Source of the DNA: Escherichia phage vB_EcoM_AYO145A
Strand: one strand, 5' to 3'
Sequence record: KR014248
Length of the DNA: 64,000 bases
Part shown: in pieces, positions 12,128-33,373 of the stretch
Numbering within the stretch: the stretch's first letter is position 1
How the letters are laid out: each line of letters begins with the position of its first letter
Made by a program: the position numbers and the translations under genes
Notes under the pieces: model-generated
Told to the model about the DNA's origin: nothing
What the model saw: the letters and a program-made list of their open reading frames with translations, nothing else
Database searches by the model: none

Positions 12128-12691
12128 ATGAAATGCTATCACGGTACTACCATCAAAAACTTTGTAAACCTGCTGAATGGTGGCGACAAGCCGGAAGGAA
12201 TCTGGAACTGCTCCTACATGGACGATTGTTTTTACGTTTACCCAATGAGCAAGATTATCAAAACGGAATGTCTGGAAGATGAGGAAGATTCTTACATTCG
12301 TGAACGCTGCATTCAAAACGCCTTAGAGTCTGGACTTATTACGGCAGCTTTCCAAATGGAAACGCAGGACGTAATTGTCATTGAAATGGATATCCCAGAG
12401 GAAGAACTAGAGGACGATTATTCTTGCGACAACATGAGCGATATCGCCAGCTTTACCGGATACTTTGATAAAGATTGGATTATCGGCATTCACTCCGCGA
12501 AATTTAGTGCGATGTATGCACCTTTCTTTTTACCTGATACAACTAACCGCAATTTAGGCTATGTTGACGATGATTTGTTAAGTCTGGCGAAAATTGTACA
12601 GAATAGCGGTGATAGTTCCGTGTTTTGTGACTTGCTGGATAAAATCACGGCAAACATCACAGAACGCAATTTAAAAGACTTTTTAGGTTAA
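12128..12691 (+). CDS. hypothetical protein (cassette gene 9)
   Basis: 187-aa acidic ORF with type B leader. Confidence 0.6.
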   Translation: MKCYHGTTIKNFVNLLNGGDKPEGIWNCSYMDDCFYVYPMSKIIKTECLEDEEDSYIRERCIQNALESGLITAAFQMETQDVIVIEMDIPEEELEDDYSCDNMSDIASFTGYFDKDWIIGIHSAKFSAMYAPFFLPDTTNRNLGYVDDDLLSLAKIVQNSGDSSVFCDLLDKITANITERNLKDFLG

Positions 12692-12754
12692 TCAGTACAA
12701 AGACACCAACTTCCAACTTAAGGCCCATACAGGGCCATTTAAAGGGCTTAAATC

Positions 12755-12988
12755 ATGCTTACAACCGTTTATCTTATCCTTTCTATTTGTAACGGTCATT
12801 CATGCGATTTTAAAGGGCTTGAGGAGTTTACAGGGAGTAAAGAAAATGCTGTTCAAGTGTGCCAGATAGCAAGGCAAGACTATCCCGCCAGTGATGATAT
12901 ACAATGTTACTTTAAGACAGAAGATGAAGACGGCATCTATTTTGACAGCGTAGATGGTCAGTATGAAATTATCATTGAAAAAGACTAG
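12755..12988 (+). CDS. hypothetical small protein
   Basis: 77-aa ORF; different leader (GGCCCatacaGGGCC hairpin). Confidence 0.5.
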   Translation: MLTTVYLILSICNGHSCDFKGLEEFTGSKENAVQVCQIARQDYPASDDIQCYFKTEDEDGIYFDSVDGQYEIIIEKD

Positions 12989-13078
12989 ACAAGCCTGATA
13001 AAAATCTGTAAATTGTCAATCAACGGGGAGGGAATAACCTTCCCCACTAAATAAAGTCCTAAACTGGAGAATCTAAAA

Positions 13079-13420
13079 ATGGCTTATGTAACCGTAATTA
13101 CCGATAAAGCTGGCGCATCTTGGTCAACTCAGGTCAGTGATAAGATGTCACCCATGCAGTGCCTAAAATACTTTGAACAGTGGAATAAAGGCGAGGACAC
13201 AAGCCCCTTTCAAGTGATGCAGATTATCCATGTAGACAACGAAGGGAATAAAACGACGCTGAATAGTGAGTACTATGCAAGCCGTTTTGAAACGAGAAGT
13301 AAAACAATGAAACTTTTACGTGAATCCGGTTATGTCCATATCGCCGCGTTAATCTGGGATGACCTGCTAAAAAGTCAGCGTATCAGCTATGTAAAACCTG
13401 AAAAAATATTCATCAGTTAA
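13079..13420 (+). CDS. hypothetical protein (cassette gene 11)
   Basis: 113-aa ORF with type A leader. Confidence 0.6.
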   Translation: MAYVTVITDKAGASWSTQVSDKMSPMQCLKYFEQWNKGEDTSPFQVMQIIHVDNEGNKTTLNSEYYASRFETRSKTMKLLRESGYVHIAALIWDDLLKSQRISYVKPEKIFIS

Positions 13421-13639
13421 TCAATAACTTACAAAAAACTTTCAAAAAAGTATTGACAACGCCCCTTGACATTGGTAACTTTGTTCGAGGGGGTTTATCT
13501 AAAAGGGATTAACTTAAAAGATTCTTTATAGATAAGCTTAAAAAATTGCTTGCAATCAGCTAACAAAACAAGTAAATTACTAATCAACGGGAGGGATAAC
13601 CTCCCCACTAAGTAAAGTCCTTAAACTAGGAGATTCAAA

Positions 13640-14170
13640 ATGAACAAGTTCAAAGCTATCAACTTCATTCGTTCAAATGCTGTAATGTCAAAGCCTGTTA
13701 AAGATACCTATGAATTTCGTTGCAATGGTGTACACTTTGCAACCATCACTAAATCAGAAAACGGGGCTTATTACGTCCATCGTCGTAATGTTTCTACTGT
13801 TGTAGTTTCTCATTTTATGCAAGCTGTCGCGGAACTTCTCCCGATGTTTTTAGGTCTTTACTTAGATGAGTGTAAAAACGTTCACAACCACGTTAAAAAC
13901 CTTTTAAACGGTTATAAAATGGCTTATGAACGTTCTATCAAGTCACTAAACAAGTTTTACAACGCACCTAAAAATACTGTATCAATAGCCTATGCTGCAA
14001 ATGGTGAGATGGTAAACTTATCCAATGTGGAAGAAATCAAGCTGCATGATTTACGCCCTAGTGGTTACTCTAAGACTCTCGGTGAAGGTTTAACGTTCAA
14101 TATCAAGAACTTAGAAAAAACTTTAAAAGATATTGAAAAAGATATTGACGAGACAATCAAAAGTCTGTAA
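13640..14170 (+). CDS. hypothetical protein (cassette gene 12)
   Basis: 176-aa ORF; type A-variant leader; upstream TTGACA boxes. Confidence 0.6.
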   Translation: MNKFKAINFIRSNAVMSKPVKDTYEFRCNGVHFATITKSENGAYYVHRRNVSTVVVSHFMQAVAELLPMFLGLYLDECKNVHNHVKNLLNGYKMAYERSIKSLNKFYNAPKNTVSIAYAANGEMVNLSNVEEIKLHDLRPSGYSKTLGEGLTFNIKNLEKTLKDIEKDIDETIKSL

Positions 14171-14236
14171 ATTGTCAATCAACGGGGAGGGAATAACCTT
14201 CCCCACTAAATAAAGTCCTAAACTGGAGTTATCAAG

Positions 14237-14500
14237 ATGGAAAACGTAGAATTAACCACACTTTTACAAATCGCAACCGACAAAGAAAACGTAGCATTAT
14301 TACACCGCATTGAAAGCGATTTGTTCAATGGTGAAATCATCAAAGAGTCTTATGAAGTTGTAGGATTCAAAGACGGTAAAGCGTTTGGATTCTTTGACCT
14401 CGAAAAAGGCAACGCTGTTACAAATTACGATGTTTTATCTTGTGAGATTCTTACAAAATACAACGAAAAAAGGCTTGCAACATACGCCAACATGCAGTAA
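14237..14500 (+). CDS. hypothetical small protein (cassette gene 13)
   Basis: 87-aa ORF with type A leader. Confidence 0.6.
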   Translation: MENVELTTLLQIATDKENVALLHRIESDLFNGEIIKESYEVVGFKDGKAFGFFDLEKGNAVTNYDVLSCEILTKYNEKRLATYANMQ

Positions 14501-14565
14501 ATTACTCATCAACGGGAGGGATAACCTCCCCACTAAGTAAAGTCCTTAAACTAGGAGATTCAAAA

Positions 14566-14814
14566 ATGGCAACTATCCGCGCAATTGTAAATTCTTATGG
14601 CTGCTACACTCTGGACGTTAAATTTGATATCGGTGGAACTGATGAATGTTTTTCATTAGTGAAGACAGTTATCAAACAAGTTATCCCAGATTATAACCCT
14701 ACTGATGACTTCTGGAAAGATGCAGTAAAAGAGGCGTTGAACGATGAATATCATTACCATTATTGGGGTGATTTGATTGTCTCCCTGTACTACAATAAAC
14801 AAGGTTACAACTAA
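14566..14814 (+). CDS. hypothetical small protein (cassette gene 14)
   Basis: 82-aa ORF with type A-variant leader. Confidence 0.6.
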   Translation: MATIRAIVNSYGCYTLDVKFDIGGTDECFSLVKTVIKQVIPDYNPTDDFWKDAVKEALNDEYHYHYWGDLIVSLYYNKQGYN

Positions 14815-14852
14815 TCGACGCAACGGGGCTAAATAGCCCCAGATACCTTTAT

Positions 14853-14879
14853 AGCCCCTTTCTCATAGGGGCTTTTTTA
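14853..14879 (+). terminator. rho-independent terminator closing the small-gene array
   Basis: AGCCCCtttctcatAGGGGCT followed by TTTTTT. Confidence 0.7.
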
Positions 14880-14880
14880 C

Positions 14881-16470
14881 GTCTATCCAATCCTTATACA
14901 ATCCCTTTCCCTTTCCTTTCCAGAATCTTATCAGACCTTAAAAGCAATAACTCTATAGTCCACTCTATAACCTTTTATCAAATCAACTTAAATATAAGCC
15001 CATAACCCGAAAGGGAAGGGCAACCATTTAAACGCTCTATAAAGCTCTATAACAGCCTTATCAACCTAACTTAAGGGATTGCATTAACTCACCCTAAAAA
15101 GCTCTTTATAAAGCTTCCTAGAGCCTTAAAAGAATCTTATAAGGGTGTAAGCTTTATCATCTCGTTAGTTCCTTGTGAACTACTAAAAAGGGCTTGTTAG
15201 TGTCTTAAAAGTATGTTATAGGGGCTATAAAGTTACTTCAAAGTTACGTAAAAGAGGCTATAAAGTTACGTAAATGCTAGCCCCCTTAACATTCTCTTAA
15301 CAAATTCTTAACAATCCCTACATAGTTATGCTTGCTAGAGACTTGTTAGCCCCTTGTTAAATCTCTGTTAAAACCACGTAAAAGCCTTGTAAGAGTCTTT
15401 GACATAGCCTTTAAAGCTCCTGTAAAGCCCTATAAAAAGGTATCTGTACAGTTGGGGTGTAATTACTAGGAAGAGGTTTAAGAGAGCTTACAAAGAGCTA
15501 TAGAGAGCTTTTAAGAGGTATGTTTAGAGAATCACTAAGAAAGAGAGGGAACGATAAGAAAGAGATAGTGACCATGTTAATAGCTTGTTAAAAAGATTAA
15601 ATACTTGTTAGAAACTTGTTAATTATCTTAACAAAATAACTCTTAAAAATTAACTTGTTAGCTCTTGTTAGTCATCTGTTAAGCCTCTGTAAAGACTATG
15701 TATTGACTGTTAAGAACTTGTTACAGCCTTGTTAGTTCTGTTAAGAATCTGTTAAGACCTCTGAAGAGATGTTAAGAGCTTGAGAGAGTTGTTAAGAGAT
15801 TGTTAAGGATATTTTAAAATTCTGCAAAGGGGGTGTTACAGGGATGTTAAGGGCTACCAAGCAGATATACATCTTCTACAGATATTTTTGAGTTCCTTCA
15901 AAGACCCTAAAAAATGACTTGATAGTCCTATTTTATAAAAATTTTAAAATTCTGAATAATTACCTATACAGTCTTTTAAAAATACAGGTAGAAACAGGCT
16001 TATAAGATACCTTGTTAGTACCGTGTTAGACCTTGTGAGATAAGGTCTGTAAAGATATTCCTGTTAAGTTTGTTAAAACAGTCTATATAGAGGCTTAGTA
16101 ATACCTAGTGAACACCTATAGAGAGTGTCATAGCTGACATAGAGATTAAGAGGTGTATAGGAGCTTCTAAGAGGGTGTAGAGGAATGGTTAAGGTGATTG
16201 TATAGGTTGTTAAGAGGGCTTGTTAGAAGAGTGTTTAGAAGGGTTATACAGAGGGGCTATTAAGACCACTAGATAGTTACTAAGATACTATATAGTACTA
16301 TATAACTATATAGAGAGTAAGATTAAGAAGGTTGTTAAGAAGGATAGATATTTTGTTCACATATGATGGTGACCCAGAGGTTGGGACAACCGATGAAATT
16401 TTATAAAAAATATAAATTTCGTAAATTTTACTCAATAAAAAGCCCCCAATTAAGGAGGCTCTTAAGATAT
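14881..16470. repeat. 1.6-kb non-coding region with about 30 short YTTGTTAR / GTTAAGAG repeats and AT-rich tracts
   Basis: no ORF of 60 aa or more on either strand; many CTTGTTAG/CTGTTAAG/GTTAAGAG copies; duplicated CTATAAAGTTACGTAAA; AT-rich blocks near 15900 and 16400. Confidence 0.7.
16436..16466 (-). terminator. rho-independent terminator (minus strand)
   Basis: reverse complement reads AGCCTCCttaattGGGGGCT followed by TTTTTATT, just downstream of the 16472 gene end. Confidence 0.5.
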
Positions 16471-16471
16471 T

Positions 16472-17095
16472 TTAAACCAGTGTTTCCAGAACTGTTTTTA
16501 ATGATGACTTAGTTGTCTGATAAAAATGAGTAAATCCATTGTTGTTATCGAATATCTGCATCATAACAGCATCTCCCTTGATTGGATACACTCGGATATC
16601 ATAGTGAAAACCATTAAAGACACAAGAGCCATTACAGAATGCACTAAAGTCATCCACTGAGATATACTCTTCATGCCCTGTGATTTTTATACAAACACCT
16701 TTACTCAGTCTCTTAGGGTTGATATCTTCCATCACAGACATACTCTGTCCACCAAGAGATACCATAGTGACCACTTTACGGTTCTTCTGTTTAAAGTACA
16801 TCTTAACTTTCTGTAAAGTATCTTCATAGAACGGATAAGACTTCTCTACAAAGATTCCTTCAAGTGGCTCTTTACCATTTTCAACTTCTCTGTTATGCCG
16901 TACTGCAAAGATAATTTGTTCGAACCAGTCAAGATTTTCTTCGGAGAGTGCTTCCCGAATATCACCCCAGTCAAGTACTAAGTAGTTACCTTCAACTTCT
17001 TTTAAGTTATCTTTTTCCATAGCTATCACACCATTATCGTAAAACTTGATATTCTGGTACTGCGAATTTATTACTATTGTTCTTGATGAGGTCAT
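16472..17095 (-). CDS. hypothetical protein
   Basis: 207-aa ORF; overlaps upstream gene by about 60 nt, so the true start may be internal. Confidence 0.5.
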   Translation of the reverse strand: MTSSRTIVINSQYQNIKFYDNGVIAMEKDNLKEVEGNYLVLDWGDIREALSEENLDWFEQIIFAVRHNREVENGKEPLEGIFVEKSYPFYEDTLQKVKMYFKQKNRKVVTMVSLGGQSMSVMEDINPKRLSKGVCIKITGHEEYISVDDFSAFCNGSCVFNGFHYDIRVYPIKGDAVMMQIFDNNNGFTHFYQTTKSSLKTVLETLV

Positions 17096-17498
17096 CCTCT
17101 GAAACTAAAAATGTAATACCACATAAGTGTCTGTAACGACTATCATACTCGAATATCTTAAACAGATATTTACCATCATGATAAACCTGTTGCACTTCAC
17201 CTTCTGCAACAATCTCGCCTGTAATAAAATTTTTTAGTTTATACACATTACCAACTTTAGGTACTGTTTTCATCTCAGGCTCTTTTAGTGCTACACCTAT
17301 TTTTGCATCACCGAGTAAATGAGAACTCTCAAAAGCTACGTGTTTCATATAAGCTTCTGAGCATTCCCAGATAAAACAATGTACAAGAACCTTAGCAGCA
17401 TGTCTTGAACAGTTCAACTTATCACAAATTTCTGTGTACATCTCATCTTTAGTAGAATTGTCAAGCATTGCTCTTTGCACTACTTCTTTAATTTTCAT
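17034..17498 (-). CDS. hypothetical protein
   Basis: 154-aa ORF. Confidence 0.5.
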   Translation of the reverse strand: MKIKEVVQRAMLDNSTKDEMYTEICDKLNCSRHAAKVLVHCFIWECSEAYMKHVAFESSHLLGDAKIGVALKEPEMKTVPKVGNVYKLKNFITGEIVAEGEVQQVYHDGKYLFKIFEYDSRYRHLCGITFLVSEDDLIKNNSNKFAVPEYQVLR

Positions 17499-17916
17499 AA
17501 GCTCTCCGAATAACCCTATTAAGCATCTCTAAAGTCAGCTTTCCAGATTCTAAATGTGGCATGATGAGTTTTAAAGCTTTTTCAACATCATTCACAACAT
17601 CTATTATACCTTCTGCATAGGCTTCTACAAGGATATCTTTTACGTTTTGTTGGTTACCTTTTTGTGGTATCACTAGACGCATATCAAAATCATTTGCTTG
17701 AGGATGGTCACTGCCACGCCAATAACCCTCTTTGTTAAAGCTGATGTAGTTACCGTGGTAAAAGTGTATACCATTAACTTTAAACTTTTCCAGTACAAGG
17801 CATTGAATGGGGTATTCAGTATCCCAATCCCTGACTCCTAGAGCCTTCACTGTTGCGATATACTTCTGTGTTTTTGCATCTATGATGTCAAGTTCTTGAC
17901 CAGCAATGATTTGCAT
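17488..17916 (-). CDS. hypothetical protein
   Basis: 142-aa ORF. Confidence 0.5.
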   Translation of the reverse strand: MQIIAGQELDIIDAKTQKYIATVKALGVRDWDTEYPIQCLVLEKFKVNGIHFYHGNYISFNKEGYWRGSDHPQANDFDMRLVIPQKGNQQNVKDILVEAYAEGIIDVVNDVEKALKLIMPHLESGKLTLEMLNRVIRRAYEN

Positions 17917-26381: not shown

Positions 26382-26458
26382 CTCTGTTTAGCTCAGCTTG
26401 GTAGAGCGTTCCGTTTGGGGCGGTAAGGCCGGAGGTTCAAGTCCTCCAACAGAGACCA
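26382..26458 (+). tRNA. tRNA-Pro(TGG)
   Basis: cloverleaf by eye; anticodon loop TTTGGGG; D- and T-arms close to E. coli tRNA-Pro; CCA encoded. Confidence 0.75.
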
Positions 26459-26465
26459 AATTAAT

Positions 26466-26543
26466 GTTCCAGTAGACAAAATGGTAAAGTCACCACTCTT
26501 TCAAAGTGGATATTTGAGGGTTCAAATCCCTTCTGGAACGCCA
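26466..26543 (+). tRNA. tRNA-Glu(TTC)
   Basis: acceptor GTTCCAG/CTGGAAC; anticodon loop CTTTCAA; T-loop TTCAAAT; CCA. Confidence 0.7.
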
Positions 26544-26550
26544 GTTTTGA

Positions 26551-26623
26551 CAGAAGACCAATTACAGCAAACTTAATCTTATTCATCTGACACGAAATCG
26601 GACAAAGAAGAGATTTGGTCTGG
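26551..26623 (+). ncRNA. structured spacer RNA candidate (CAGAAGACC...GGTCTGG family, copy 1)
   Basis: 5' CAGAAGACCA and 3' TGGTCTGG form the terminal helix; shared internal CAGCAA box. Confidence 0.3.
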
Positions 26624-26634
26624 TCATTAAGAAT

Positions 26635-26711
26635 TGCGGGTATAGAGAAAGGGCGTCTCACATGTCTCATTAGCATGGTATCGGCAGGTTCGACTCCTGC
26701 ACCCGCCTCCA
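26635..26711 (+). tRNA. tRNA-Met(CAT), or Ile2/fMet
   Basis: anticodon loop CTCATTA; T-arm GCAGGttcgactCCTGC; CCA. Confidence 0.55.
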
Positions 26712-26717
26712 ATTTTG

Positions 26718-26777
26718 CAGAAGACCGTATGCAGCAATAAACTACTTTTTGCGGATAAAAGAAAAAACACGGTCTGG
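26718..26777 (+). ncRNA. structured spacer RNA candidate (same family, copy 2)
   Basis: CAGAAGACCG ... CGGTCTGG; compensatory G:C where copy 1 has A:T. Confidence 0.3.
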
Positions 26778-26788
26778 CAATGTATTAA

Positions 26789-26865
26789 GGTTAGGAAGCA
26801 CATAAGGTATGTGCGGTCGCCTGTTAAGCGAATGGCACAGGGTTCGAATCCCTGACTAACCGCCA
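26789..26865 (+). tRNA. tRNA-Asn(GTT)
   Basis: anticodon loop CTGTTAA; T-arm CAGGGttcgaatCCCTG; CCA. Confidence 0.65.
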
Positions 26866-26874
26866 AATTTAAAT

Positions 26875-26962
26875 GTGTCGTTATCCCGTAGATGGTAGCG
26901 GTGGGGACTGTAAATCCCTTGTCATTGAGACTCGGTAGGTTCGACTCCTACACGGCACACCA
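26875..26962 (+). tRNA. tRNA-Tyr(GTA)
   Basis: 88 nt with long variable arm; anticodon loop CTGTAAA; CCA. Confidence 0.7.
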
Positions 26963-26968
26963 AATAAA

Positions 26969-27046
26969 GGTTATGTAGTTTAATCTGGTTAAAATACTCC
27001 CCTGTCACGGGAGATGATGAGGGTTCAAATCCCTTCGTAACCGCCA
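26969..27046 (+). tRNA. tRNA-Asp(GTC)
   Basis: anticodon stem CTCCC/GGGAG, loop CTGTCAC; CCA. Confidence 0.75.
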
Positions 27047-27133
27047 AATTATAATAAGTATTCCAAGATGATGTTTTGAGAGGGCTATTTAGCCCCTCCC
27101 TTAAAGAGTTCTTACGAGTATTCTTTAAAGGAG

Positions 27134-27210
27134 CAGAAGACCAAATTCAGCAAGTACGTATGATATTTTCAAGCCAATTTAATTTTGAAAAAATTTAAAA
27201 CTTGGTCTGG
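27134..27210 (+). ncRNA. structured spacer RNA candidate (same family, copy 3)
   Basis: CAGAAGACCAA ... TTGGTCTGG. Confidence 0.3.
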
Positions 27211-27223
27211 CTCAACAAATTTA

Positions 27224-27355
27224 CAGAAGACCGTTTACAGCAAAACTTAAACAATCTATTTCTCCGGTAAAGAAAAGGCGAAGGTTCGATTCCTTCACTC
27301 GGCAGATGTCGAGTTGGTGTAATGGTAGCACTTAAGATGATAAACAACGGTCTGG
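27224..27355 (+). ncRNA. Y-RNA-like RNA candidate (YrlA-type, permuted tRNA-like module)
   Basis: terminal helix AGACCGT/ACGGTCT; inside, T-arm GAAGGttcgattCCTTC, then ACTCGGC-agat-GTCGAGT acceptor-like hairpin, then TG and D-arm GTGTaatggtaGCAC; about 1 kb downstream of the Ro60-like gene. Confidence 0.45.
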
Positions 27356-27357
27356 TA

Positions 27358-27500
27358 ATTATCTTTGTAGATAAGTTATTAAGCTTACCTGTGAGTATGC
27401 GACCACAAAGGGTGAAAGGGTAAATTCTAGATTTAAACCCAACAAGGCACATCGCTACAGACCTTAAGCAAGTCTGGGTAGCTTATCTACAAAGATAATT
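27358..27500 (+). ncRNA. structured RNA candidate closed by a perfect 19-bp inverted repeat
   Basis: AATTATCTTTGTAGATAAG (27358-27376) is the exact reverse complement of CTTATCTACAAAGATAATT (27482-27500); internal CAGACcttaagcaaGTCTG hairpin. Confidence 0.35.
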
Positions 27501-27505
27501 TTAAT

Positions 27506-27581
27506 GGAAGTGTAGCAGAATGGTGATGCGGCAGACTTTTAATCTGACAGGCGATGGGTTCGAATCCCTCCACTTCTACCA
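27506..27581 (+). tRNA. tRNA-Lys(TTT)
   Basis: anticodon loop CTTTTAA; T-loop TTCGAAT; CCA. Confidence 0.65.
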
Positions 27582-27585
27582 ATAT

Positions 27586-27662
27586 GGTTCAGTCGCAGAT
27601 AAGGTAATGCAGGGGTCTCATAAGCCCTATGAATGTGGGTTCGATTCCCATCTGAACCTCCA
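27586..27662 (+). tRNA. tRNA-Met/Ile(CAT)
   Basis: acceptor GGTTCAG/CTGAACC; anticodon loop CTCATAA; CCA. Confidence 0.65.
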
Positions 27663-27663
27663 A

Positions 27664-27739
27664 GCTGGTATAGTTAAGAAGGTTATAACACTCCCCTGAT
27701 AAGGGAACATCGGTGGTTCGATTCCACCTACCAGTACCA
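27664..27739 (+). tRNA. tRNA-Ile(GAT)
   Basis: D-stem GTTA/TAAC; anticodon loop CTGATAA; T-arm GGTGGttcgattCCACC; CCA. Confidence 0.65.
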
Positions 27740-27754
27740 ATTTCAATAAAGTTG

Positions 27755-27783
27755 TTGACATTGAGATGTGACTACTTTATAGT
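27755..27783 (+). promoter_or_regulatory. sigma70-like promoter (TTGACA-N17-TATAGT)
   Basis: internal promoter inside the tRNA island. Confidence 0.5.
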
Positions 27784-27987
27784 AACCTTAGTTTTCGTTG
27801 CGTAGCGTCTATTTTGCAAATTTAAAATAAATGCAAACGACAATGTTTTTCTGGCAGTAGCTTGATAGGCTAAACACCAGTGAGGTCTTCCAATCCCTCA
27901 TCAAAGAATTTGGCGTACTCGCCCACGGTATGATTAATAAGGTGGGCATCTTTAAGGGCTTTCTAAGAGAGTCTTTAAAGATAATTA

Positions 27988-28069
27988 CGGGGCGTATCTC
28001 AGCGGTCTTCTAAACCGCCGTTAACCGAGTAAGTGGAGTATGCGGGTTCGAGTCCTGCCGCCTCGACCA
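27988..28069 (+). tRNA. tRNA-like, possibly Arg(TCT); non-canonical D region
   Basis: good acceptor (CGGGGCG/CGCCTCG), T-arm and CCA; GCGGTcttctaaACCGC fits an anticodon arm but leaves no room for a normal D-arm. Confidence 0.35.
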
Positions 28070-28211
28070 AATAGTTAGCAGATTACTTAGACGGTCTTAG
28101 CGGGTCTTCCTGTAGGGAGGTGGTCTGTATCTCATGTTTTCCAGAACATGTAAATAATCTGAGAAGGGGCTTTACAGTGTTGAGATAATACGGTAAGCTT
28201 CGAATTATAGT

Positions 28212-28294
28212 GTGGGACGATGTTAAGACTCTAAGGCATGAGCAACGGCTTCCAACACCGTTTCAAAGGGGTTCAACTCCTCCGTCCCATGCCA
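28212..28294 (+). tRNA. tRNA-like, possibly Trp(CCA); enlarged D region or anticodon loop
   Basis: acceptor GTGGGAC/GTCCCAT, T-loop TTCAACT, CCA; AACGG-cttccaaca-CCGTT contains CCA in a 7- or 9-nt loop. Confidence 0.35.
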
Positions 28295-28307
28295 AAGTCT
28301 TATTAGG

Positions 28308-28395
28308 GGTAGGTAGCGGCTAATGGTAGCCAAACTGTCTTGAAAACAGTTGCCACTGTAGAGATACGGTGAGGGTTCGACTCCTTTACTTACCG
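28308..28395 (+). tRNA. tRNA-Ser(TGA)
   Basis: class II: anticodon stem ACTGT/ACAGT, loop CTTGAAA, long variable arm; 3' CCA not encoded (GCCT). Confidence 0.65.
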
Positions 28396-28652
28396 CCTAA
28401 TAAGATTTAAAGCCAAGCTTCATTCGGATGTTGCTTTGGTATACCGCGTGTATTGTTGTACGCACTGATAAAGCACCTAGTAGGTGTCACGGAGAAGAGA
28501 TAATATCAAGCTCTCCAAAGGTTCTAGTCACCGGATTAAACAAGACTATGCAAAGACCTTTTTAGGTCTTTTTAGAGGGCTTCTAAGGTTATTACAGCTT
28601 GTTGTGGAACCTTGTTGCTTAGGTTCTTAGAAGTTCTCTAAAAAGACTTAAT

Positions 28653-28730
28653 GGGAGATTGACGGTAATTGGTAAACCTATCTCGCTTAGAACGAGATGT
28701 TTGAGGGTTCGAATCCCTTGTCTCCTACCA
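28653..28730 (+). tRNA. tRNA with anticodon TAG (Leu by anticodon; class-I-like shape)
   Basis: anticodon stem TCTCG/CGAGA, loop CTTAGAA; T-loop TTCGAAT; CCA; short variable loop. Confidence 0.5.
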
Positions 28731-28737
28731 AATTAAT

Positions 28738-28813
28738 GCAGGTGTAGCAAAATGGTTATGCGGCTGACTCTTAATCAGTAAGACGATGGGTTCAATTCCC
28801 TCCACCTGTACCA
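28738..28813 (+). tRNA. tRNA-Lys(CTT), tentative
   Basis: acceptor GCAGGTG/CACCTGT; anticodon loop CTCTTAA; weak T-stem; CCA. Confidence 0.5.
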
Positions 28814-28819
28814 AACAAT

Positions 28820-28895
28820 GGGGATGTAGTTTACATGGTTAAAACATAAGTTTTGCAAACTTAAGTACAGGGTTCAATTCCCTGCTTCTCCACCA
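28820..28895 (+). tRNA. tRNA-Ala(TGC)
   Basis: anticodon stem TAAGT/ACTTA, loop TTTGCAA; T-arm CAGGGttcaattCCCTG; CCA. Confidence 0.65.
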
Positions 28896-28901
28896 ATTAG
28901 T

Positions 28902-28976
28902 GCATCCATAGTTTAAACGGGAAAATTACAGTCTTCCAAACTGAGGTTGAGGGTTCGATTCCCTCTGGATGCTCCA
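28902..28976 (+). tRNA. tRNA-Gly(TCC)
   Basis: acceptor GCATCCA/TGGATGC; anticodon loop CTTCCAA; CCA. Confidence 0.7.
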
Positions 28977-28982
28977 AACAAT

Positions 28983-29059
28983 GCTGCTTTCGTATAATTG
29001 GCTATTACACATCCCTTGTAAGGATGGAAATGCAGGTTCGAGTCCTGTGAGCAGCACCA
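28983..29059 (+). tRNA. tRNA-Thr(TGT)
   Basis: anticodon stem CATCC/GGATG, loop CTTGTAA; CCA. Confidence 0.7.
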
Positions 29060-29062
29060 ATT

Positions 29063-29150
29063 CAGAGGTCAAGTGAAAGACCGCTTTGAGTCAACTGAAG
29101 ACCGTAACAAATTCCACGGAGTTGAGTTAGCGGCACAACTCCAGACCTCT
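29063..29150 (+). ncRNA. structured spacer element
   Basis: outer helix AGAGGTC/GACCTCT enclosing GGAGTTGagttagcggcaCAACTCC hairpin and a GAAGACCG box. Confidence 0.25.
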
Positions 29151-29155
29151 TTCAT

Positions 29156-29230
29156 ACTCGCTTAGTTTATATGGTAAAACATCACCCTTACAAGATGAAG
29201 AAAAAGGTTCAAGCCCTTTAGTGAGTACCA
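29156..29230 (+). tRNA. tRNA-Val(TAC)
   Basis: D-stem GTTT/AAAC; anticodon loop CTTACAA; CCA. Confidence 0.65.
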
Positions 29231-29231
29231 T

Positions 29232-29309
29232 GTTCCAGTATCCCAATTGGCAGAGGATGCAAGCTCAAACCTTGTATTAGTGACGGTTCGAATCCGTCTT
29301 GGAACACCA
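29232..29309 (+). tRNA. tRNA with anticodon CAA (Leu by anticodon)
   Basis: anticodon stem GCAAG/CTTGT, loop CTCAAAC; T-arm GACGGttcgaatCCGTC; CCA. Confidence 0.55.
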
Positions 29310-29314
29310 ATTTT

Positions 29315-29390
29315 GCAGGATTAGTTCAAATGGAAAGAGCAACAGTCTACGAAGCTGTTAATAGGGGTTCGAATCCCTTATCCTGCGCCA
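29315..29390 (+). tRNA. tRNA-Arg(ACG)
   Basis: acceptor GCAGGAT/ATCCTGC; anticodon loop CTACGAA; CCA. Confidence 0.7.
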
Positions 29391-29409
29391 ATTTAAAGAG
29401 GCTATTTAG

Positions 29410-29967
29410 ATGAGATATTTGAAGTATGCTTCATGGATTTTCTTAGCTTTGTTAGAGCCATTTGCAGCAATCTTAGCAGTTATCTTAGCACCTTTCGTAG
29501 TTCCATTCTACAGTGAGAAGAAAGGCCACTTACCTTTCGGATTTAGATGGATGGAGACCTATGACAACCCGATTGATGGTGATGAAGGCCACGTTAAAAG
29601 ATGGGCTAAGATTAGAAAGATTGGTAAGCTCGGTGTTTATATGCAGAGAGTTGGATGGCTCTGGAGAAACAAAGCTTATAACTTCTCTTACCATGTATTA
29701 GGAAGAGATGTAAAAGATGTTACTAAGTGGAAAGGTAATATCAACGTAAGTTCTAACCCTGAAGATAATCAGACAGGTTATCTCCTAATGTGGAACAGTA
29801 ATGCTTGGGGATTATTTGCTTTTATCCCATCTATTAAAGTCTTTGGTAAACAATTCTACTGGAGAATTTATGTTGGGTGGAAACTAAAAAGTGTTGTCCC
29901 AGAAGAAAGAGCATTCTCAAGGGAAAGAGTTATGTTGGCATTCTTTATTCATCCACTAAGAAAATAA
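29410..29967 (+). CDS. hypothetical membrane protein embedded in the tRNA island
   Basis: 185-aa ORF with N-terminal hydrophobic segment; flanked by tRNAs. Confidence 0.5.
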   Translation: MRYLKYASWIFLALLEPFAAILAVILAPFVVPFYSEKKGHLPFGFRWMETYDNPIDGDEGHVKRWAKIRKIGKLGVYMQRVGWLWRNKAYNFSYHVLGRDVKDVTKWKGNINVSSNPEDNQTGYLLMWNSNAWGLFAFIPSIKVFGKQFYWRIYVGWKLKSVVPEERAFSRERVMLAFFIHPLRK

Positions 29968-29975
29968 AGATTTAA

Positions 29976-30051
29976 AGGGGATTAGTTTACAAGGTTAAAA
30001 CCTCGGTCTTTGAAATCGAAGAAGTTGGTTCAATTCCAACATCCCCCGCCA
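29976..30051 (+). tRNA. tRNA-Gln(TTG)
   Basis: anticodon stem TCGGT/ATCGA, loop CTTTGAA; T-arm GTTGGttcaattCCAAC; CCA. Confidence 0.65.
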
Positions 30052-30053
30052 AT

Positions 30054-30132
30054 GCTCCATTACTCCAATTGGCAGAGAGGCCAGACTTAAAATCTGTGTT
30101 ATGTATCGGTTCGAATCCGATATGGAGTACCA
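30054..30132 (+). tRNA. tRNA with anticodon TAA (Leu by anticodon)
   Basis: anticodon loop CTTAAAA; T-arm ATCGGttcgaatCCGAT; CCA; 7-nt variable loop. Confidence 0.55.
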
Positions 30133-30137
30133 AATTT

Positions 30138-30213
30138 AGCGGTATAGCATAACTGGCAATGCAACAGTCTCTGAAGCTGTCCTATTAAGGTTCAAATCCT
30201 TATGCCGCTGCCA
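30138..30213 (+). tRNA. tRNA-Gln(CTG)
   Basis: anticodon loop CTCTGAA; T-arm TAAGGttcaaatCCTTA; CCA. Confidence 0.65.
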
Positions 30214-30244
30214 CTTCTAAGGGTTCTTACGAGAGTCCTTAAAT

Positions 30245-30320
30245 GTGGCCTTATCATAAAAGGTAATGACCCATGCTGTGAACATGGTCTATACGGGTTC
30301 AAATCCCGTAGGTCACCCCA
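30245..30320 (+). tRNA. tRNA-His(GTG)
   Basis: anticodon stem CCATG/CATGG, loop CTGTGAA; CCA. Confidence 0.7.
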
Positions 30321-30326
30321 ATTTAT

Positions 30327-30402
30327 AGTCCAAGTAGCTTATATGGTTAAAGCGCGTGTCTGAAAAACATGAGAAGAGGGTTCAAATCCCACTGGACTAC
30401 CA
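30327..30402 (+). tRNA. tRNA-Phe(GAA)
   Basis: D-stem GCTT/AAGC; anticodon loop CTGAAAA; T-loop TTCAAAT; CCA. Confidence 0.65.
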
Positions 30403-30418
30403 ATTTCAAAGGTGCTTA

Positions 30419-31153
30419 ATGAAAGAGATGACAGAACAAGGTAAGGAGATTTTTAATCTCTTAAAAACCGGTAAAGGGTTCTCTAACCCGCTTATTACTG
30501 GTGCAGCAGTTCTCGGTGGAACCGTAGCTGCTTCTACATCACTTGTAAGCTCTATTAGTTCTGTAACAGACCCTACAATGAAGGAGAAACTTGTTGCTGC
30601 TGGACTTACAACAGTCCTTTTAAACAGCTTTACAACAAGCCTTACAAGCACTACAGCAACTACTAAGACCCTAACAGACTACGGTCAAAAGTCTATTGAT
30701 GAGTTTTCATCACGTATGCAGGTAGCAAAGGGATACTCCAATGTTATGGGTGCAGTAGGAGAACAAGTTGGTTGTACACCATTCAGTGGTATTATGGGTG
30801 TTGCTACAGAGTATGGTCAAAAAGCTATTGACACAATTAACAGTGCACTAGACGGTGTTAATGATGTATTAAGTGACTTACAAGATGCTATTGATAAAGG
30901 TCTTGATACTGTTTCTGATTTAGCTAACCAAGCTGTTAGTAAGATTAATGAAGGTATCTCAAAGATTACAGCTTATGCAGATGAAGTTGTGCAGATGATT
31001 GAAGAAGAAGCTGCCCTTATTGCAGAGTACCTTAAAACAAATATCAATGGGTTCTTAGCAGGTATCTTACCAGACTGGTTTGATGATGCTTGTAAAACTG
31101 GTGTGATTGATACTATTGCAACACCAGAAATGAAGAACGCATTACAGAAATAA
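30419..31153 (+). CDS. hypothetical Ser/Thr/Ala-rich protein
   Basis: the ORF-track start at 30356 lies inside tRNA-Phe; first ATG after the tRNA is 30419; low-complexity N-terminal half. Confidence 0.5.
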   Translation: MKEMTEQGKEIFNLLKTGKGFSNPLITGAAVLGGTVAASTSLVSSISSVTDPTMKEKLVAAGLTTVLLNSFTTSLTSTTATTKTLTDYGQKSIDEFSSRMQVAKGYSNVMGAVGEQVGCTPFSGIMGVATEYGQKAIDTINSALDGVNDVLSDLQDAIDKGLDTVSDLANQAVSKINEGISKITAYADEVVQMIEEEAALIAEYLKTNINGFLAGILPDWFDDACKTGVIDTIATPEMKNALQK

Positions 31154-31154
31154 T

Positions 31155-31247
31155 GGAAGATTAACCCTAAAAGGTAAGGGAGCAGTTTGCTAAACTGCCA
31201 GTAGCTGAGAAATCGGTGTACCAGTTCAAGTCTGGTATCTTCCTCCA
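31155..31247 (+). tRNA. tRNA-Ser(GCT)
   Basis: class II, 93 nt: acceptor GGAAGAT/ATCTTCC, anticodon stem GCAGT/ACTGC, loop TTGCTAA, long variable arm; CCA. Confidence 0.65.
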
Positions 31248-31251
31248 ATTT

Positions 31252-31327
31252 GAATCCGTGACAGAAATGGCTATGTGCCTGTCTGCAAAACAGGTTTATA
31301 AGGGTTCGAGTCCCTTCGGATTCTCCA
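31252..31327 (+). tRNA. tRNA-Cys(GCA)
   Basis: acceptor GAATCCG/CGGATTC; anticodon stem CCTGT/ACAGG, loop CTGCAAA; CCA. Confidence 0.7.
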
Positions 31328-31489
31328 AGTTATTTTACTCTCTCTCAATTAAAATAATAATAATGCCCTGCTATAAGTATTCTTCCTTTCGCTACCGAAG
31401 AGTATTTTTAGACAGGGCTTTTTTACAGAGTTATACTTTATAGGAAGACTTATACAGTATGTCTCTGACGTACATTGTGGTTTCTCCTT

Positions 31490-31513
31490 GACGGTCTCTG
31501 TGCCGTCTTTTTT
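31490..31513 (+). terminator. rho-independent terminator
   Basis: GACGGtctctgtgCCGTC followed by TTTTTT. Confidence 0.6.
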
Positions 31514-31549
31514 AAGGGGAAACAATATTAATTATTTGGAGAAAACATA

Positions 31550-31750
31550 ATGAGTGAGAACGTTTATAAAGAACTTTATGAAGCTAACAAAAAGCTGGAA
31601 TTTATGCAGAACACTATCATGGCAATTGCAGACAGATTATCTGTAGCAACAGGTATTGATATCAAAGAGGCATCTATGGATGCACTTCTTGATGCTGTTG
31701 ATGCAAAGTTCGAAGTTAAGAAAGAAGAGACTGCTACAGACTCTGAATAA
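31550..31750 (+). CDS. hypothetical small protein upstream of terminase
   Basis: 66-aa ORF with GGAGAAAACATAATG RBS. Confidence 0.45.
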   Translation: MSENVYKELYEANKKLEFMQNTIMAIADRLSVATGIDIKEASMDALLDAVDAKFEVKKEETATDSE

Positions 31751-31771
31751 TTCTATTTGCGGAGGTGCTTA

Positions 31772-33373
31772 ATGGACTTAAATGCTGTTAAGCAGAAGCG
31801 AGTGGAAGATGTTAGGAAAGTCCTAGCTGGAGAGTTGGGGCTTTCTGATGAAGTAAAAGAAATTATCAAATCATTCGGTAAAGACCCCTCTAAATTCCTT
31901 CCAACTCAAATTCTGACTTTATTAAGATACACACCAGACCAAGTTAGACTTATCTTCAAATTGATGACTGATAAGAACTATGTAGCCCCTCAGCCGGGTT
32001 CTCAAGAGGTGTTTTTAAATACTAATGCTGACTTGGTTTTATATGGTGGTGCTGCTGGTGCTGGTAAAACTGCTGCATTGTTAATGGACTCTTTAAGATT
32101 TATTGAAGACCCTAACTATAATGCTGTATATTTCCGTCGAAATACAACACAGCTACAAGGTGGTTTATGGCCTGCTGCAAAGAAACTATTTGGTAAGTTT
32201 GGTGGGGTTCCTCACGAGCAGAAGATGACTATCACATTCCCTTCTGGGGCAACTATCAAGTTTACTTATTTAGAACTTGAAAAACACGCTGAAGGTCATC
32301 AGGGTATTGAATACTCAGCTATCTACTTTGACGAAGGTACACACTTCTCTGCCTCACAGATTTCATACCTACAGACCCGTCTACGTTCTGGTGCTGAAGG
32401 TGATTCATACATGAAGATTTCCATGAACCCAGACAGAGACCACTTCATTTATGATTGGGTAGAGCCATTCTTAGATGAAGAAGGTTACCCAGACCCTGAG
32501 AAATGTGGTCGTATTCGTTGGTATGTTATGAATGATGGTGTGATGGTTTCTGATTGGGAGAGAGACAAGATTCTTGAAATGTTTCCTCTTGAGATTCCTC
32601 AGACATACACCTTCATCTCTGGTACGATTGATGATAACCCAATTCTTGACTTCTTAGAACCTAAATATCGTGGTAAGTTGGAAAACAACACACCTGTAAA
32701 CGTTGCAAGACTTCGTTTCGGTAACTGGAAGGCTCGTGCAGAAGGTTCAAACTATTGGCAAAGACAATGGTGTGAGATTGTTGATTCACTCCCAGAAGAT
32801 GTGTTTGATGTCAGAGCATGGGACTTAGCAGCGACTTTACCATCTGAAATTAACCCTAACCCAGACTGGACAGCGGGTGTTAAGATGGGTAAATCTAAAA
32901 AAGACGGTTGCTATTATATCATTGATGTAGTAAGATTTAGAGATAGACCCTCTGGAGTCGAAACACAAATTAATTTGACTGCTGAAAGTGACGGTAAGCG
33001 AACTGGTATTTTTATCCCTCAAGACCCAGGCGCTGCTGGTAAATCCTATGCAACATCCCTCATCAGGAAACTTGCCGAGAAAGGTTATCGCGCAAGAGCT
33101 AAACCAACAAATAAAGATAAAGTTACCCGCTTTGCGGGATTTTCTGCTGCTTCTGAAGCTGGACTTGTAAAAGTCTTGAGAGGTAGTTGGAACGAAGCTT
33201 ACTTTCAAGAACTTGAAGGTTTTTGTGGTGATGGTAAAACTAAAGATGACCAAGTGGATGCTACCAGTGATGCTTTCAACAGTCTTAACGAAGTTAAATT
33301 ATTCAAGCCACCATCAATGGGTGCTCACACAGACTTAGTGAGAGGAAACCCATATGAGGGGCTTAGACGTTGA
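31772..33373 (+). CDS. terL: terminase large subunit
   Basis: Walker A LYGGAAGAGKTAA; GGAGG RBS before the ATG at 31772 (ORF-track start 31757 is a TTG). Confidence 0.8.
   Translation: MDLNAVKQKRVEDVRKVLAGELGLSDEVKEIIKSFGKDPSKFLPTQILTLLRYTPDQVRLIFKLMTDKNYVAPQPGSQEVFLNTNADLVLYGGAAGAGKTAALLMDSLRFIEDPNYNAVYFRRNTTQLQGGLWPAAKKLFGKFGGVPHEQKMTITFPSGATIKFTYLELEKHAEGHQGIEYSAIYFDEGTHFSASQISYLQTRLRSGAEGDSYMKISMNPDRDHFIYDWVEPFLDEEGYPDPEKCGRIRWYVMNDGVMVSDWERDKILEMFPLEIPQTYTFISGTIDDNPILDFLEPKYRGKLENNTPVNVARLRFGNWKARAEGSNYWQRQWCEIVDSLPEDVFDVRAWDLAATLPSEINPNPDWTAGVKMGKSKKDGCYYIIDVVRFRDRPSGVETQINLTAESDGKRTGIFIPQDPGAAGKSYATSLIRKLAEKGYRARAKPTNKDKVTRFAGFSAASEAGLVKVLRGSWNEAYFQELEGFCGDGKTKDDQVDATSDAFNSLNEVKLFKPPSMGAHTDLVRGNPYEGLRR

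Follow-up and report, generated by a model that had tools for sequence, protein, structure and literature searches.

Known genome-end and iteron systems

The concatemer junctions of phages T7 and T3 are gene-free, hold a short non-permuted direct terminal repeat (DTR), and carry a short motif about once per helical turn in the repeat and in its flanks (SRL and SRR). Here we analyzed a 64,000-nt stretch of the genome of Escherichia phage vB_EcoM_AYO145A (record KR014248; hereafter the window), in which a gene-free region of 1.6 kb (positions 14881-16470) shows a comparable design, with a predicted DTR of 579 bp embedded in arrays of 11-bp units, termed iterons. Judged by architecture, the T7 terminal repeat with its SRL/SRR arrays is the closest analogue. 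Analyzed in the same way, the T7 junction contains TAAAG 20 times in 739 bp, with z-scores of 6.5-8.4 at lags of 12-13 bp. However, the T7 motif is CCTAAAG with a period of 12-13 bp, compared to TGTTAAG and 11 bp here; the T7 repeat has 160 bp, compared to 579 bp in a region about twice as long; and the present phage is a myovirus with a T4-type Terminase_6 large subunit. As motif, period, size, virus family and terminase type all differ, the resemblance points to an analogy of design rather than to homology. We know of no T7-type RNA polymerase in this phage group, so that nothing here obviously corresponds to the transcription-linked role of the T7 junction; nor do we know of a description for T7 of inverted iterons that bracket the repeat. 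The heptamer ATCTGTT is found at 15674 and 15747, within iterons. In T7, this heptamer forms the core of the signal at which the phage RNA polymerase pauses in the concatemer junction. The likeness is probably a coincidence, because the window holds 15 copies of the heptamer and no T7-type polymerase is known to us in the group.

Other systems share single traits with the region. Iteron origins (lambda ori, P4 ori/crr and plasmid iterons) also possess helically phased direct repeats by AT-rich DNA; however, they have 4-8 units of 17-22 bp, compared to about 140 units of 11 bp here, and the present arrays coincide with the genome ends and have no initiator gene or DnaA boxes next to them. The parC site of plasmid R1 consists of ten 11-bp iterons, one per turn, which are bound by ParR, a small protein that polymerises along one face of the helix. 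The arrays described here are ten times longer and tied to the termini, and no parM/parR-like gene was found among the six flanking proteins. A partition or centromere-like site, one of the functions named in the original prediction for this region, is accordingly not supported, as nothing resembling ParA, ParM, ParB or ParR was found among these six proteins by Pfam and PHROG and the phage is lytic with a linear genome. In phage phi29, periodic signals at both ends of the linear genome nucleate a multimeric complex of p6 protein and DNA, which resembles the present arrays; however, the ends of phi29 carry terminal proteins, its terminal repeats are short and inverted rather than long and direct, and p6 recognises bendability, with a period of 24 bp, instead of a sequence motif. 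Repeated short motifs also flank the terminase cut site in the P1 pac hexamers, the lambda cosB R sites and SPP1 pacL/pacR, but these sites span 100-300 bp with 3-7 elements.

The gene-free region holds a direct terminal repeat

From 14824 to 16471 (1648 bp), no open reading frame (ORF) of at least 50 residues is present in any frame, which ranks second among the ORF-free stretches of the window, behind the tRNA cluster; the next one measures 429 bp. The plus-strand gene array stops at 14814 and the minus-strand block at 16472. Both the unusual length of the ORF-free region and its position between the plus-strand early array and the minus-strand block agree with the original prediction. Inward-facing terminators flank the region on both sides, and the genes on either side are transcribed toward it. 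In total, 255 phage records match the region at 78-95% identity, nearly all of them from Felixounavirus or Mooglevirus, and the window is part of the genome of a Felix O1-like myovirus (Felixounavirus). The equivalent in Felix O1 itself is 12371-13926, between ORF23 (plus strand) and ORF24 (minus strand), where no annotation is given.

Several related records open or close inside the region at one shared query position. We fetched both ends of four of them and found exact terminal duplications of 580 bp (E9), 613 bp (Ro111lw), 628 bp (NBEco004) and 613 bp (SPJ41). The common start of all four corresponds to window position 15280 (GCCCCCTTAACATT; GCCCC[CT]TTAACATT), where the reverse-oriented records end, and their common end corresponds to position 15858 (TGTTAAGGGCTACC). 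By homology to these records, window positions 15280-15858 are assigned as a 579-bp DTR, and the virion DNA is predicted to run from G15280 to C15858. As the four records have the same terminal boundaries, the region comprises the DTR plus non-coding flanks; that is, it is the concatemer junction, where terminase cuts. The 399 bp on the left and the 612 bp on the right of the DTR are the non-coding DNA just inside the right and the left virion ends, respectively. This main identity of the region, a genome terminus, was missed in the original prediction.

The features of the region are as follows, with a slash marking the DTR boundary.

14825-14873, plus strand: pair of hairpins closing the early-gene array (GGGGCTAAATAGCCCC followed by AGCCCCTTTCTCATAGGGGCT and a T-run), from the terminator scan; left edge of the non-coding region, with terminators annotated likewise in Moogle and Maleficent.
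14881-15279, plus strand: flank before the right-hand DTR copy, with 11-bp-phased CTnTAAAG / CTTATAAG / CTCTATAA units; mean conservation to the window sequence 0.879 (30 relatives).
15207-15272, plus strand: 33-bp (3 x 11) tandem repeat (A)AAGTTACGTAAAAGAGGCTATAAAGTTAC of repeat family D12, outside the left DTR boundary.
15265-15292, plus strand: left terminus signal GTTACGTAAATGCTA/GCCCCCTTAACAT, with the predicted virion start at G15280, from the four record ends; kept in Felixounavirus, Mooglevirus and Suspvirus.
15280-15858: predicted DTR of 579 bp, one copy in the window, one per end in the virion; it includes a purine-rich TTAAGAGAG-type block (15450-15560) and a single reverse iteron at 15627.
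15285-15313, minus strand: three reverse iterons CTTAACA at 15285, 15296 and 15307, 11 bp apart, at the left DTR edge.
15342-15851, plus strand: forward iteron arrays with 18 TGTTAR (CTTGTTAG, CTGTTAAG, GTTAAGAG), spaced mostly 9-11 or 20-22 bp.
15845-15871, plus strand: right terminus signal TGTTAAGGGCTACC/AAGCAGATATACA, with the predicted virion end at C15858.
15859-15990: AT-rich iteron-free segment (GC 0.23), adjoining the left-end DTR copy on its inner side; the best-conserved stretch of the region begins here (smoothed conservation 0.91-0.98), and no significant single-strand fold was found in it (z = -1.4).
15991-16350, plus strand: flank inside the left virion end, with CTTGTTAG-type iterons at 15996-16080, then purine-rich ATAGAGAG / TTAAGAGG / GTTAAGAAGG units; smoothed conservation mostly 0.82-0.99.
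16443-16457, minus strand: terminator of the minus-strand gene block, from the terminator scan; right edge of the non-coding region. Positions 16400-16440 beside it are the least conserved part of the region (0.44).
31757-33373, plus strand: large terminase subunit gene (PHROG 979, E = 1e-233; Pfam Terminase_6N and Terminase_6C).

These termini have the properties of a T7-type short DTR: the same sequence is present at both ends in the relatives, and the ends are fixed and non-permuted, with identical first and last bases in the four records and homologous positions in records of Kolesnikvirus. Published work points to the same type of ends. A 613-bp DTR was determined by PhageTerm for Ro111lw (PMC6454146), the termini of E9 likewise come from PhageTerm (PMC11737134), and Felix O1-like phages have been classed as T7-type short-DTR packagers in the PhageTerm papers (PMC6454146). 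For UAB_Phi87, a 608-bp DTR was derived from Bal31 digestion plus run-off sequencing, and two discrete SpeI fragments (2819 and 4322 bp) proved sensitive to Bal31 (PMC4837284). The GenBank record of UAB_Phi87 opens away from the physical ends and is not directly usable for the termini; the boundaries found here would give it a DTR of 614 bp and terminal SpeI fragments of 2751 and 4431 bp, to which the reported ones come within 2-3%, close but not exact. A cut site in the form of a direct repeat, with GCTA at the two junctions staggered by 2 nt, agrees with the Felix group; it was rejected because it fails in Erwinia phage phiEa21-4.

Iterons phased at 11 bp fill the region

The hexamer TGTTAR is found 26 times on the plus strand and four times on the minus strand within 14881-16470, compared to 69 and 45 times in the other 62.4 kb, which bears out the originally claimed 30 or so copies of short motifs. 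For TGTTAAG, 15 of the 42 matches in the window fall into the region, which makes up 2.5% of the window; the motif is about 35-fold over-represented there, and dinucleotide shuffles predict about 16 matches for the whole window. The region also contains eight of the 15 window matches of CTTGTTAG, compared to 3.9 expected in the whole window from such shuffles. Autocorrelation of base identity at lag 11 reaches 0.395, compared to 0.263 +/- 0.015 in coding controls (z = 11), with harmonics at lags 22 and 33, and the 3-bp periodicity of codons is absent from the region. By part, the lag-11 z-score is 5.6 in 14881-15279 and 10.1 within the DTR, and the flank 15859-16470 gives z = 3.3-4.1 at lags 10-12. 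In the left flank the unit takes another form: CT.TAAAG has a density of 7.5 per kb in 14881-15279, compared to 0.34 per kb elsewhere in the window. The whole 1.6 kb consists of degenerate 11-bp units, one per helical turn, with the core TGTTAAG or a relative of it (CTTGTTAG, GTTAAGAG or CTnTAAAG). This periodicity of the whole region had escaped the original prediction. A duplicated CTATAAAGTTACGTAAA unit, by contrast, does not exist as it was stated there, since the full 17-mer occurs once (15258); what is present is a 33-bp tandem repeat, with copies at 15207-15239 and 15240-15272 that are 76% identical. In addition, CTATAAAGTTAC and AAAGTTACGTAAA occur twice each.

The orientation of the iterons follows the edges of the DTR. 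Reverse-oriented iterons alone are present in its first 60 bp and forward-oriented ones alone in its last 100 bp, and the best inverted repeats of the region join both DTR edges, with 95% identity over 20 nt and 74% over 39 nt. Moreover, two of the four occurrences of CCCTTAACA in the 64 kb sit at the DTR boundaries, 3 and 5 nt inside the ends and in opposed orientations.

Three further leads were rejected. A de novo motif search by expectation maximisation converged on a quasi-palindromic profile, YTTWAAAR, of low information content and with over 500 overlapping sites; it was useful only in that it revealed the units to be variants of CTTnnAAG. Repeat spacings of 261-264 bp suggested a higher-order module of about 262 bp, but no long-lag autocorrelation peak is present, and alignments of the modules reach only z = 3-5, as expected because the copies share the iterons. 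A T7-style junction hairpin was represented by the inverted repeat 15212-15226 / 15278-15292 (z = -2.7), which three of the four Mooglevirus sequences lack, with no compensating change; the remaining junction segments fold no better than shuffled sequences.

Conservation and gain of 11-bp units among relatives

An alignment of 31 homologous regions from Felixounavirus and Mooglevirus (four of them Mooglevirus) was used for the following comparisons, and the Suspvirus phage mistaenkt was analyzed separately. The non-coding DNA has a mean conservation of 0.88-0.91, compared to 0.82 and 0.92 for the flanking genes. Between genera, it is about 81% identical, whereas identity falls to 50-56% in the neighboring 207-residue protein. 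All 31 sequences have an invariant right junction, GTTAAGGGCTACC/AAGCAGATATACA, and the left junction GTTACGTAAATGCTA/GCCCCCTTAACAT is nearly so; GTTAAGGGCTACCAAGCAGATATACA is likewise unchanged in 31 of 31 and found in mistaenkt as well. Conservation of the TGTTAR hexamers is 0.965, compared to 0.884 for the rest of the region, a difference that none of 2000 circular shifts matched; inside the DTR alone, the values are 0.975 and 0.862. The core hexamer of the iterons is under purifying selection across four genera, and this selection is stronger than that on the spacers. With hexamers that are better conserved than their spacers, and with an overall conservation on a par with the flanking genes, the region is read as a functional array of protein-binding-type iterons. 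The part of the original prediction that saw a protein-binding array here therefore stands, whereas its centromere does not and the genome terminus was absent from it.

The array changes in length by whole units. Among insertions and deletions of at least 5 nt, 18 of 48 are exact multiples of 11 and 29 of 48 lie within 1 nt of one, and 24 of 30 predicted DTR lengths are within 1 bp of 569 + 11n. The 11-bp units are gained and lost by slippage, and the DTR length consequently shifts in 11-bp steps. The reverse unit at the left edge, CTTAACATTTT, is present in 2-5 copies among the relatives, and the 33-bp block ranges from a partial unit to several extra copies (in L024).

Two irregularities were observed beside these patterns. 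A 24-bp insertion, ATGAGGTAGATTCTACCGAATCAA, which holds a small inverted repeat (GGTAGAttCTACC), lies just after 15873, directly behind the invariant AAGCAGATATACATC, in five of the 31 aligned sequences (L028, L017, L018, L027 and SPJ41). As its carriers belong to both Mooglevirus and Felixounavirus, its spread suggests either exchange between genera or a recurrent event. Positions 135422-137669 of GU169904.1, the 147-kb record of Staphylococcus phage SA1, contain a Felix O1-type region at 91% identity plus the neighboring 207-residue gene; this record is probably a mixed or chimeric assembly.

The architecture recurs in Kolesnikvirus and Suspvirus

Erwinia phage phiEa21-4, a member of Kolesnikvirus, has a syntenic ORF-free stretch at 16472-17912, in which megablast found no similarity to the region of the window. 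Nevertheless, GTTAAGA occurs 12 times in this stretch, compared to twice in the other 43.5 kb of that genome, and the lag-11 z-score is 9.2. The sequence AAGCAGATATACA is found at 17467-17479, straight after the point where at least eight Kolesnikvirus records end, and the starts of Kolesnikvirus records are marked by the homologous TTTTACGCTATGGTTA/GCCACTTTTACATT. Homology of the boundary motifs predicts the ends of phiEa21-4 at 17028 and 17466; the starts of three Kolesnikvirus records fall on 17027-17029, and the ends of at least eight on 17465-17468. In the resulting repeat of about 439 bp, the left edge again carries reverse iterons and the right edge forward ones. The region and its junctions are also present in phage mistaenkt. 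From phiEa21-4 and mistaenkt together, the architecture is conserved in four genera, namely Felixounavirus, Mooglevirus, Kolesnikvirus and Suspvirus.

Alternative explanations

We consider it probable that the region is the genome end and concatemer junction of a Felix O1-like myovirus furnished with phased iterons; the iterons themselves may help terminase to recognise the junction, may build up a nucleoprotein complex at the ends, or may belong to an origin. That the arrays are, or include, a replication origin, where an initiator binds phased TGTTAAG and melts an AT-rich tract while the DTR merely overlaps, seems improbable to us. The AT-rich tracts claimed originally do exist (GC 0.23 at 15581-15680 and at 15881-15980) and stand beside helically phased direct iterons, gene orientation and GC skew diverge here, and an origin would give a use to the conserved AT-rich, iteron-free segment 15859-15990, which is otherwise unexplained. 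However, phased iterons and AT-rich DNA are also expected in a T7-like junction, and the sign change of the GC skew at the region is uninformative on an origin because the gene strand switches at the same place. Consensus sites for DnaA and IHF are absent from 14800-16500, no initiator-like gene is adjacent (the six flanking proteins, three per side, have no Pfam match and only PHROGs of unknown function), and an origin would not require that the orientation of the arrays track the DTR edges. The same flip of orientation exactly at the DTR edges is left unaccounted for by a telomere-like scaffold, in which an abundant phage or host protein coats the injected genome ends for exonuclease protection or recombination into concatemers, rather than a packaging signal being read. 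Such a scaffold would suit arrays that cover about 1 kb at each virion end, the one-turn phasing that sets all sites on one face of the helix, the selective conservation of the hexamers, the absence of Chi sites from the region, and the related phage Bas63 being without a RecBCD inhibitor (PhageMaP paper, 10.1101/2024.10.10.617714); a candidate protein was not found. We regard this reading as unlikely in place of the terminase-directed junction, with which it is compatible and overlaps rather than competes.

If the arrays were a slippage-prone spacer without sequence-specific function, with only about 30 bp per junction that matter, the copy number of the 11-bp and 33-bp units could vary freely, as it does among relatives; for the analogous T7 short-repeat arrays, too, no established function is known to us. 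But the region is as conserved as the neighboring genes, and more so between genera, the hexamers are more conserved than the spacers, and the hexamer is kept in phiEa21-4 although its surroundings have diverged past detection by megablast, which together make a pure spacer very unlikely. Least probable is a non-coding RNA or small proteins encoded by the region. Rfam gave no match with E below 0.7; nine promoter-like sites were counted, compared to 9.2 expected, and the terminators point inward, two results that also go against the transcription-factor binding array of the original prediction. Insertions and deletions come in multiples of 11, not 3, the 3-bp periodicity is lacking, and small ORFs are broken in many or most relatives. 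One minus-strand ORF of 26 codons (MYICLVALNIPVTPPLQNFKISLTIS, 15792-15872), which spans the right DTR boundary, is the exception: it runs from 15872 to 15792, remains open in all 30 relatives, and is equally long in phiEa21-4, where 14 of 26 residues are identical. However, its 20 nucleotide variants give 16 peptides, most of its substitutions alter the amino acid, its variable sites number 9, 3 and 6 by codon position, and it has no Shine-Dalgarno sequence, with variable sequence directly upstream of the start, into which some relatives have the 24-bp insertion. That the ORF stays open is probably due to constraints at the DNA level, because it overlaps the invariant terminus signal and iterons.

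Several observations weigh against the junction reading or parts of it. The ends of this phage itself are placed from relatives that are 88-95% identical to it, and the SpeI/Bal31 fragment sizes of UAB_Phi87 differ from the prediction by 68 and 109 bp, implying a DTR of 573 bp, neither 608 nor 614 bp. TGCTA, outside the left junction, varies among relatives, and Roscha1 opens 1 nt off the Felix-type cut position. The best-conserved stretch begins with the iteron-free 15859-15990, which the model does not explain. To our knowledge, 1.6 kb with about 140 units far exceeds what any described pac or cos site needs. Neither an iteron-binding protein nor a small terminase was recognized by Pfam and PHROG among the neighbors of the region and of the terminase gene. 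Furthermore, the inverted CCCTTAACA element of phiEa21-4 lies at a different distance from the right end, so that a two-fold-symmetric nicking model rests mainly on the Felixounavirus group.

A model for the generation of the termini

Within the junction reading, the large terminase (31757-33373) together with a DNA-recognition partner would read ...TGCTA/GCCCCCTTAACA and TGTTAAGGGCTACC/AAGCAGATATACA during packaging. As the expected cutter of the DTR boundaries, it would act in trans, its gene being 16 kb from the DTR. The opposed CCCTTAACA copies plus the inverted arrays at the edges make it the simplest model that the same protein binds both DTR edges, oppositely oriented, and introduces two nicks 579 bp apart, one in each strand. 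Extension of the recessed 3' ends by strand-displacement synthesis would then duplicate the repeat, as Watson proposed for T7. With one iteron per helical turn, many copies of a binding protein would line up along a single face of the helix, where they could mark and bend the junction for terminase, organise the DNA ends, or do both. A more far-reaching version, which we put forward only tentatively and hold to be rather doubtful, is a subfamily-wide 'phage telomere', in which a sequence-specific protein polymerises on the TGTTAAG iterons at both ends, the inverted brackets orient two strand-specific nicks, and the repeat length is quantised in helical turns.

A small terminase would be the expected binder of such elements, and we know of none in this phage group or subfamily; beside the large terminase gene (29410-31750), none is recognizable. 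The ORFs in that interval encode a 66-residue acidic protein (PHROG 4397), a 265-residue DUF7217 protein and a 185-residue DUF7338 protein. As iteron binders, all three were rejected: the 66-residue protein is acidic, the 185-residue protein appears membrane-associated with its hydrophobic N-terminal stretch, and the 265-residue protein belongs to DUF7217. An 82-residue protein beside the region was dismissed as well, having no detectable homologue at the same place in phiEa21-4.

Neighboring features and annotation

Upstream of the terminase gene, 25 tRNA genes lie at 26382-31327. A 568-bp gap in this cluster (27740-28307) has no ORF and no ARAGORN call; it has a weak Rfam tRNA match at 27988-28066 (31.7 bits), which may be a degenerate tRNA. 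On the other side, in the early-gene array, intergenic modules of about 70 bp (14167-14236 and 14496-14569) recur upstream of successive small genes. Each module combines a -10-like element of TAAATT type with the hairpin GGGGAGGGAATAACCTTCCCC and a ribosome-binding site, and the modules probably belong to the same class as the direct repeats of 57 bp and 39 bp that have been reported for Felix O1 (PMC3185647). In the homologous region of other records, automatic annotation has placed 'hypothetical proteins' of 30-55 residues, as in PP886229.1 (E9, 241-1157), PV798375.1 and others; the small ORFs homologous to them are not conserved among the relatives.

Implications for Felix O1-like phages

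The arrays, or the placement of the DTR in this region, are absent from the papers on Felix O1, wV8, VpaE1, Michonne, UAB_Phi87, the Danish wastewater phages and PhageMaP (Bas63), and no description of the junction sequences or of the 11-bp quantisation was found in the literature examined. New here are the 11-bp steps in DTR length, the inverted bracketing by iterons, the higher conservation of hexamers than of spacers, and the sharing of the architecture by phiEa21-4 with termini as predicted.

Felix O1-like phages are widely used in typing, biocontrol and therapy of Salmonella and E. coli, yet public records open at arbitrary points and leave this region unannotated or fill it with spurious 30-residue 'genes'. 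Taking 15280 and 15858 as the physical ends, with their invariant junctions, allows genomes to be oriented correctly and enables a simple motif-based prediction of termini, which worked for the distant Kolesnikvirus group; it also makes engineering safer, as insertions at the junctions can be avoided. The iterons point to a DNA-binding partner, and their phased and inverted arrangement suggests in concrete terms how T7-type ends could be made by a T4-type terminase. If true, the 'phage telomere' would provide a testable mechanism at the sequence level for the generation of short DTRs.

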